A stretch of DNA of 64,000 bases. It comes from Escherichia coli (lineage in GTDB: Bacteria; Pseudomonadota; Gammaproteobacteria; Enterobacterales; Enterobacteriaceae). Below are positions 1 to 559 of the stretch, one piece after another. The stretch is taken from assembly GCF_024502345.1 (NCBI RefSeq), contig NZ_JALDNN010000001.1; one strand, given 5' to 3'. Each line of letters opens with the position of its first letter. The stretch's first letter is position 1. The position numbers are program-made.

Positions 1-559
1 TAGCCAAAATGGACCGTTCAGCACGACGTATTACGATGGCCGCATTCCTCCTGAAATGATAAAAAACAGGTTAGTTGTCGTGCTCAACGGAAAAATTAAT
101 GGCAACGCATGCATCGTCGTTCCATTATCAACCACTCGCGACCATGACAAGTTAAAACGTGGAATGCATGTTGAAATAGCCAGTAATGTTATCAATGACC
201 TGCAATTCTTTGATCAGCAGATTCGTTGGGCCAAAACCGACCTGGTACAACAGGTCAGTCGAAACAGATTAAACAGAGCAAGAACTTACAGAGGGTATCT
301 TAATCAATGTTTGCCACATGAGTTGGTTGCAGACATACAGAGGGCGGTCATCAAGTCAATCAATGCCATATCGCTCATAAATTGACAATAAAATCACCAT
401 CCCCGATAATGACTTTGTAGCCCATAGAGGCCCTAAGTTTTCTCCCCTTGAGGGACCTGCGAAGCCTGGATTTTCCGGGCTTTTGCCATATATGTACCAG
501 CCCCTCCCTGACTGACAATTACGTTAGCATCTGCGGATCATGCTAAAATCGCCGCCTGA

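Follow-up and report, generated by a model that had tools for sequence, protein, structure and literature searches.

The Escherichia coli gene yifN, which encodes a MazF/PemK-like protein, is linked to a conserved two-hairpin small RNA that could be its antitoxin

Introduction

MazF and PemK are textbook type II toxins. The stretch of DNA analysed here, called the window below, comprises 64,000 nucleotides of an Escherichia coli genome (assembly GCF_024502345.1, contig NZ_JALDNN010000001.1) and opens within a gene, yifN, whose product resembles these toxins. The locus raises a simple question: what, if anything, holds YifN in check? The Prokaryotic Genome Annotation Pipeline (PGAP) labels yifN "type II toxin-antitoxin system PemK/MazF family toxin", despite no protein partner. 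A preliminary description of the window had reported an orphan MazF/PemK-like open reading frame (ORF) at 56-385, next to ppiC, with no recognisable N-terminal motif and no antitoxin in view, and had offered two explanations: a degenerate remnant, as in K-12, or a solitary toxin whose antitoxin would lie upstream, outside the window. Our analysis points to a different partner, a small RNA (sRNA) gene located immediately downstream of yifN. We tentatively propose that the two form a type III-like module, in which an RNA antitoxin would neutralise a toxin of the MazF fold. The gene yifN and the transcript were each already known and uncharacterised, while their pairing, the structure of the RNA, its conservation across the family and the proposed antitoxin role appear to be undescribed.

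A conserved small RNA gene follows yifN

The gene and the elements of the putative module are arranged as follows.

1-385, + strand: 3' part of yifN, in frame from position 2 (codons 23-149, TGA stop at 383-385), with a PemK/MazF match
382-410, + strand: sigma-70-type promoter of the sRNA (-35 box TTGACA at 382-387, 17-nt spacer, -10 box GATAAT at 405-410)
417-489, + strand: sRNA gene of about 70 nt, matched by a covariance model; +1 at G417, 5' end GUAGCC, two hairpins and a terminator
420-431, + strand: hairpin 1, GCC/GGC stem (420-422 with 429-431) and loop CAUAGA; 99.1% paired
443-455, + strand: hairpin 2, UCCC/GGGA stem (443-446 with 452-455) and loop CUUGA; 89% paired, with compensatory changes at 3 of 4 pairs
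461-484, + strand: terminator, 10-bp stem (461-470 with 474-483) and U run at 481-484; 99.2% paired, with compensatory changes at 7 of 10 pairs

Similar peptides were encoded by spurious ORFs located 3' of yifN homologues in unrelated genera, a sign of conservation at the nucleotide level. With a covariance model of 28 sequences, the window gives exactly one strong match, at 417-489 (76.4 bits, E = 1.4e-16). The earlier statement that no antitoxin partner was in view thus holds for proteins but overlooks this gene, which lies between the ORF and ppiC. Its two hairpins are separated by a U-rich linker, and hairpin 2 is, judging from the sequence, a diverged tandem copy of hairpin 1.

The proposed structure is supported by covariation. 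In an alignment of 37 sequences, which was fitted to the structure of the model so that the counts are biased towards that structure, 96.8% of the cells are paired and 11 of the 17 pairs show compensatory changes, values that none of 500 shuffles reaches. When the register is slid, the covariation score collapses from 0.369 to at most 0.087. The stem of hairpin 1 becomes GGC/GCC in loci L043 and L045, and a C to T change at window position 467 gives a G-U pair in the terminator stem where other E. coli have G-C.

The promoter of the sRNA, whose -35 box contains the TGA stop codon of yifN, scores 11 out of 12 and is the best in the region in a promoter scan. A promoter scoring at least 8 out of 12 stands at a fixed distance from the +1 in 37 of the 38 copies, compared with 2.3% of control positions. 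Because of this conserved promoter, and because the orientation of the element flips between loci (see below), we rejected its reading as a 3' untranslated region or a simple terminator of yifN. A small peptide encoded in the RNA region, such as the ORF at 448-546 of the window, was also rejected, as ORFs of this kind lack conservation between loci and the sequence varies in step with base-pairing, not with a reading frame. Three Rfam scans, which covered the window (E <= 10) and 16 loci from other taxa, gave no match to the element; the best overlapping family, rnk_pseudo, scores 36.9 bits, below its threshold of 55.

A transcript from this position has already been detected in the laboratory strain. 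The sRNA ecr3777(d+), a northern-positive K-12 transcript of 79 nt, was mapped to the same strand of the spacer between ppiC and yifO/yifN (Romero et al., 2014; PMC4681348, where it is credited also to Conway et al., 2014). Our covariance model matches K-12 at 3,959,908-3,959,980 of NC_000913.3. With an offset between K-12 sequence versions that we estimate at about 1,977 nt, this match presumably agrees with the coordinates of ecr3777(d+) within a few nucleotides. The sRNA of the window and ecr3777(d+) are alike in locus, strand and size. In the literature searched, ecr3777(d+) appears simply as a newly detected transcript, and we found nothing there on its structure, family, conservation or function, or on a link to YifN; it has no Rfam family. 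A C to T mutation described as "ppiC/yifN intergenic" (+78 from yifN, position 3,957,957 of U00096.2) arose in MG1655 during 1000 generations in simulated microgravity (Tirumalai et al., 2017; PMC5460176). It falls at about window position 464, corresponding to nucleotide 48 or so of the sRNA, where the terminator stem has a G in its 5' arm.

The RNA and yifN travel together

Homologues of YifN with 42-83% identity occur in Enterobacterales, Pseudomonas, Aeromonas, Shewanella, Xanthomonas, Legionellaceae and Betaproteobacteria. In every full-length locus of the core family that we examined, whether chromosomal or plasmid-borne, a match to the sRNA stands beside yifN, and there is none in the E. 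coli locus without yifN that we examined; E. coli gains or loses the two as a unit. Conversely, a metagenome scan with a pattern of the sRNA only retrieved 34 loci, all of which have yifN immediately upstream on the same strand. The arrangement of the pair varies in some lineages. The sRNA is convergent with yifN in Shewanella, and in Massilia and Herbaspirillum it is located upstream of yifN on the opposite strand. The YifN variants of the latter two genera are 213-214 aa long and their sRNA lies about 0.8-1 kb upstream, beyond an HTH_36/DnaD_N gene; the sRNA of Massilia is at 2134-2214 of L046, and the Herbaspirillum locus (L048) has two tandem sRNA genes (1980-2060 and 2137-2219). In Chimaeribacter (L021, 3001-3501), the yifN frame is longer, with 166 aa, and runs into the first nucleotides of the sRNA, whose start is at 3490, a case of tight packing. 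On pM1C124_1, a Tn3-family insertion carrying blaTEM-40 has separated yifN from the sRNA.

The pair is also mobile. A YifN homologue is present in 111 plasmid records (58 conjugative), such as those of pCAR1, pND6-1 and p1448A-A. On pCAR1, p1702 and an E. coli IncX1/IncF plasmid, yifN is succeeded by the sRNA. No homologue was found in phage records, and a phage origin of yifN was rejected on that ground. The occurrence on plasmids, often right after replication genes, is consistent with an addiction module. On the IncX1/IncF plasmid pW1316-2 (L065; 2182-2266, 2819-2906 and 4679-4778), the yifN-sRNA pair stands directly before a ColE1-type RNAI (72.9 bits), and two AgrB-like antisense RNAs (64 and 55.7 bits) lie within about 2 kb of it, so that small-RNA-based elements of maintenance or replication are clustered here. 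On IncP-7-type Pseudomonas plasmids (L005-L008 and pCAR1, 82-90 kb, L064), the pair is found inside a long same-strand array of small hypothetical genes, which also holds an orphan N6 DNA methylase, a GNAT acetyltransferase and a Ser/Thr phosphatase, and resembles a leading or anti-defence region of conjugative plasmids.

The repeat units of the RNA have diverged with the lineages. On Pasteurellaceae plasmids (L100 and L101), the two units are direct repeats, 93-94% identical and 25-26 nt apart; both stems are wholly swapped (CGG/CCG) and the loops are kept as CUUAGA and CAUAGA. The Xanthomonas sRNA contains an 11-nt repeat pair, and those of the betaproteobacteria Roseateles and Rubrivivax have, by eye, three hairpins. 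In a relative at only 102 bits, the layout is the same and the loops are GCAA, so that the loop sequence seems to track the toxin lineage. More distant homologues, at about 30% identity (only five sequences, L054-L057 and L063), seem to be followed by a conserved non-coding element as well. This alphaproteobacterial and Planctomycetaceae element is longer, with a -10 box, the sequence GUUCCC...GGGCUUNUAAGAC, an ACAAGC motif and a terminator; it may represent an expanded form of the sRNA, distantly related to it.

YifN is predicted to be a MazF-fold endoribonuclease

The preliminary assignment to MazF/PemK is borne out by a family hidden Markov model search. The 127 visible residues of YifN match Pfam PF02452 (PemK_toxin) with 42.7 bits (E = 7e-11) and the full-length protein with 41.7 bits, for a cutoff of 23.1 bits. 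It is the only significant Pfam family, and YifN does not belong to ToxN, CptN or TenpN. The AlphaFold 2 (AF2) model (pLDDT 79.5, pTM 0.74) has low confidence only in the beta1-beta2 loop. All of its top 50 Foldseek matches in the PDB are MazF proteins (E of about 1e-5, target-normalised TM-scores of 0.65-0.76), and YifN is thus predicted to adopt the SH3-like barrel of MazF and CcdB. A PDB search by sequence found no solved homologue, the hit to DarA (E = 0.17) being at chance level.

Sixteen positions are invariant across an alignment of 36 YifN members, among them E40, R45 and S65, which hhalign pairs with E24, R29 and T52 of E. coli MazF. These MazF residues have catalytic or substrate-related roles. 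In the same alignment, P7 and G10 of YifN fall on P7 and G10 of MazF, and YifN has a 16-residue insertion in the beta1-beta2 loop. With these catalytic Glu, Arg and Ser/Thr residues retained, YifN most likely acts as a toxin with sequence-specific endoribonuclease activity; no experimental report of endoribonuclease activity or growth inhibition was found in the literature searched. Ribo-RET data place initiating ribosomes on yifN in laboratory E. coli. The clade, called "YifN (PemK superfamily)" in some sources, is small and sharply bounded, with 31 cluster representatives at E <= 1e-30 and 115 at E <= 1e-10 among 1.84 billion.

Intact and broken alleles of yifN in E. coli

The ORF at 56-385 (+ strand) is indeed open to the window edge, its frame running back to position 2, and it corresponds to the 3' part of an E. 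coli-type yifN, as had been suspected. All of the 127 visible codons are intact. The first 65 nt of this copy lie outside the window, and the start and extent of the gene are taken from other complete E. coli genomes, where yifN has 450 nt (149 aa) and a GTG start located 65 nt upstream of window position 1. For this reason, the ATG at 56-58 is the internal Met41 and not the start of the gene. In the same way, the N-terminal strand INFSPKVGEILECNFG, which matches YVPDMGDLIWVDFD of MazF, was not seen because it is encoded upstream of position 1; it is present in other E. coli. We found no recognisable promoter for yifN.

The suspicion of a degenerate remnant does not fit this copy. The K-12 gene (b3777) is a 449-nt pseudogene whose lesion is a 1-nt deletion (T) at the equivalent of window position 145. 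The window keeps T145, reading GACCATGAC where K-12 has GACCA-GAC, and does not carry the K-12 pseudogene allele. The ratio of nonsynonymous to synonymous divergence (dN/dS) is 0.05 between the window and strain SX4 (16 synonymous and 3 nonsynonymous differences) and 0.06 against yifN of Superficieibacter, with a range of 0.05-0.07 over intact alleles. Intact yifN alleles are under strong purifying selection. The visible part of YifN differs from the allele of strain 132 by a single amino acid.

The segment is carried by 3,986 of the 5,426 complete E. coli genomes and wholly absent in about 1,440. In the yifN-less strain JJ1887, an unrelated 86-bp spacer between rep and ppiC replaces 864 bp, and no flanking repeats that could be insertion scars were found around the E. 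coli presence/absence segment. The K-12 deletion allele has an exact match in at least 1,224 of these genomes, and the intact 61-mer of the window type is found exactly in 362, O157:H7 included. An IS1 insertion sequence (IS) splits the segment in a natural isolate, E. coli O78 strain 3, IS2 was inserted in yifN' during laboratory evolution (PMC4340650), and truncated Shigella versions of yifN exist. The IS insertions and the widespread K-12 frameshift indicate recurrent inactivation of the toxin gene.

Over positions 1-2500, the closest match of the window among the 5,426 genomes is only 99.0%, so that its lineage lies outside this set; it is perhaps a Shigella or a divergent Escherichia clade. 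The synonymous divergence between the yifN of the window and that of SX4 (L003), with a dS of about 0.22, is unusually high within E. coli, and the 73-nt sRNA of SX4 is the same as that of strain 132, with a single base difference in the copy of the window. At the sequence level, this combination suggests old allelic lineages or recombination in yifN, with tight constraint on the sRNA.

No conserved protein antitoxin

The alternative suggestion, that of an antitoxin upstream of the window, is not supported by other genomes. In complete E. coli genomes, the upstream neighbour of yifN is the divergent rep helicase gene, 216 bp away, and this spacer contains only ORFs of 22 and 28 aa without Pfam matches. 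More generally, the spacers on both sides of yifN contain only ORFs of 20-47 aa, none with a Pfam match. All-vs-all clustering of 567 ORFs from 46 homologous loci revealed no neighbouring ORF family common beyond single genera or elements, and thus no conserved neighbour. Small ORFs tightly coupled to yifN on the same strand, considered as candidate antitoxins, were absent or inconsistent in these loci, or proved to be artefacts of translating the conserved RNA. The yifN loci therefore do not show the hallmark of type II systems, an adjacent, co-transcribed protein antitoxin of the MazE/PemI type with an AbrB or ribbon-helix-helix (RHH) fold, and they do show one feature of type III systems, a non-coding RNA gene linked to the toxin.

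The genomic contexts are diverse. The 6.3-kb plasmid p1702 carries only mobC, a relaxase gene, an IS, lnu(C), rep and yifN; the latter begins 3 nt after rep and is followed by the sRNA, with no other plausible partner. Where an upstream neighbour is present, it encodes a Rep3, HTH_36/DnaD_N or RadC protein, and yifN directly follows replication-type genes with gaps of 3-20 nt in three settings (Rep3 in Shewanella, HTH_36/DnaD_N in Massilia and a primase-type Rep on p1702). In Xanthomonas, yifN resides in an integrase/RadC island, and on the Serratia chromosome the module stands between a lipoprotein gene and a MerR gene. The contigs of second-tier relatives are mostly too short for context.

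A tentative RNA antitoxin for YifN

It is tempting to suggest that yifN and its sRNA represent an unrecognised class of RNA-antitoxin systems, in which an endoribonuclease of the MazF/PemK family would be checked by a dedicated two-hairpin sRNA, expressed from its own promoter downstream of the toxin gene. We hold this proposal of a new class a little more cautiously than the type III-like pairing itself; the class would be represented in the majority of E. coli and by plasmids, conjugative as well as small mobilisable ones, across Gamma- and Betaproteobacteria. The protein would be poorly expressed, given the GTG start in E. coli and the lack of a recognisable promoter, and the sRNA, transcribed from its own near-consensus promoter, would be abundant and presumably labile. 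The contrast between the strong promoter of the RNA and the GTG start of yifN, for which no promoter was recognised, fits an excess of RNA over protein. The conserved, duplicated loops on swapped stems suggest recognition by a specific, probably dimeric, partner: the sRNA could inactivate the YifN dimer by direct binding, with one hairpin unit for each subunit. A stable toxin would then be released once the module is lost or the sRNA is no longer made. The outcome would be a type III-like toxin-antitoxin or addiction module with a reversed gene order and a toxin of the MazF family.

Such a module would share features with several known types. Like MazF, PemK (Kid) and ChpBK, YifN passes the family model, has a MazF-like predicted fold (target-normalised TM-score of about 0.7) and keeps the P-x-x-G strand, the equivalents of E24, R29 and T52, and the Q-V-x-S...R-L motif. 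Unlike them, it has no upstream MazE/PemI-type antitoxin in any context and is linked to an sRNA gene; the protein itself, with 149 aa, the 16-residue beta1-beta2 insertion and a longer C-terminal helix, belongs to a separate small clade. The type III systems ToxIN, CptIN and TenpIN similarly combine an endoribonuclease-type, Kid/MazF-like toxin with an adjacent non-coding RNA, and they also spread horizontally on plasmids and chromosomes. Their RNA is built of short tandem repeats, which for the sRNA of yifN are evident in some lineages, such as the Pasteurellaceae plasmids, and not in the window. However, their toxins are ToxN, CptN or TenpN and not members of PemK/MazF, their genes follow the order promoter, repeats, terminator, toxin, and their RNA precedes an attenuating terminator. 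In contrast, the RNA described here comes after yifN, has its own promoter and a variable orientation, and contains only two or three hairpin units of about 26 nt. In type I systems such as RalR/RalA and SymE/SymR, the toxin gene is likewise adjoined by an sRNA gene, but the sRNA of yifN shows neither antisense overlap with, nor conserved complementarity to, the yifN mRNA.

Several points weigh against an RNA antitoxin. The toxicity and RNase activity of YifN, its binding to the RNA and its neutralisation by the sRNA are inferences. The toxin-first order, the own promoter of the RNA and the presence of two or three repeats are unlike all described type III systems, and NCBIfam and PADLOC searches with YifN gave no match and no model. 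The two units of the window are too diverged to register as repeats. The sampling of loci on which the linkage is based was pattern-driven and non-exhaustive. The minimum free energy (MFE) fold of the single sRNA sequence prefers another, long-range helix; we do not favour this helix, which is only 73.9% paired across the family against 99% and 89% for the local hairpins. Finally, K-12-type strains with a frameshifted yifN keep and express the sRNA, which is compatible with an antitoxin outliving its toxin or, equally, with an RNA that has an independent function.

If the RNA antitoxin is confirmed, a MazF fold would be paired with an RNA antidote, bridging types II and III and supporting the notion that toxin folds combine freely with types of antitoxin. 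Some "orphan toxins" of genome surveys may then have RNA partners that are invisible to protein-centred pipelines, and a function would be found for an E. coli sRNA that is validated by northern blot but uncharacterised. Resistance plasmids with lnu(C) and blaTEM-40 also carry the module, which could serve there in plasmid maintenance. In E. coli, the hypothesis can be tested directly, since natural intact (O157:H7-type) and frameshifted (K-12-type) alleles exist.

Alternative explanations

The best surviving alternative, which we regard as unlikely but worth serious attention, is that YifN is a solitary toxin, or an RNase of low toxicity, without any antitoxin, the sRNA being its substrate or cargo or a trans-acting regulator that travels with it. 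The linkage by itself would suit either direction of function, and the expression of the sRNA in K-12-type strains would be readily explained. A U-rich linker followed by a terminator also resembles generic trans-acting sRNAs. On the other hand, the constrained catalytic residues of the MazF type imply an active RNase that would normally need control, and duplicated loops on swapped stems fit a dimeric partner better than diverse mRNAs across Gamma- and Betaproteobacteria.

It is rather improbable that YifN is a non-toxic RNA-binding protein of the MazF fold, acting with the sRNA in plasmid biology, such as replication or copy-number control. The many plasmid copies and the position of yifN right behind replication-type genes in three independent contexts would suit such a role. 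Nevertheless, the catalytic residues are retained, and the module also occupies chromosomal sites without replication genes, between the rep helicase gene and ppiC in E. coli and between the lipoprotein and MerR genes in Serratia. Moreover, toxin-antitoxin modules typically adjoin rep genes.

We consider it very improbable that YifN is neutralised in trans by a protein, through cross-neutralisation by MazE, ChpS or a PemI-type antitoxin or by the product of an unlinked gene. E. coli does have other antitoxins of the MazE family, and split toxin-antitoxin systems are documented in the literature, but a host-encoded partner would be unreliable for a gene found in very different hosts and on small mobilisable plasmids, and no conserved protein partner is apparent.

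There is also little to suggest that the yifN of the window is a dead remnant, disrupted like that of K-12 but in the 65 nt of its 5' end or in its promoter. Inactivation is common, as the K-12 deletion, the IS insertions and the truncated Shigella versions illustrate, and the lineage of the window falls outside the set of complete genomes. Yet the visible codons are intact, the K-12 deletion is absent, and both the near identity to the allele of strain 132 and the low dN/dS against SX4 speak for a functional gene.

Hardly credible, and weakly refuted by the sequences, is a type I-like antitoxin that would pair with the yifN mRNA to block translation or trigger decay: although the C/U-rich linker UUUUCUCCCC reads as loosely complementary to the Shine-Dalgarno sequence UAAGGAGAGG of E. 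coli yifN, cognate duplexes of the sRNA with the translation initiation region (-21.56 kcal/mol) are no stronger than non-cognate ones (-21.95 kcal/mol) or shuffles (mean z of about -0.15), complementary 7-mers number 1.8 per locus against 1.41 +/- 0.31 in shuffled sequences, with none in E. coli and no recurrent site, and the linker is absent in Pasteurellaceae.

The spacer to ppiC

Two further features complete the region.

490-583, + strand: spacer to ppiC, outside the module, with a 44-bp stretch at about 512-555 and candidate ppiC promoters
584-865, + strand: ppiC, peptidyl-prolyl isomerase C, the next protein gene and an unrelated housekeeping neighbour

The gene ppiC is thus the downstream protein neighbour of yifN, in agreement with the preliminary description; the other neighbours are ilvC (minus strand) and ilvY. 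The spacer contains two promoter-like CTGACA-18-GATCAT matches, at 512-541 and 556-585. The 44-bp stretch is absent in some E. coli, for instance in strain SX4, and looks like one copy of a tandem duplication starting with CTGACAATTA. As each copy carries a CTGACA-18-GATCAT match, the promoter dosage of ppiC may differ between strains.

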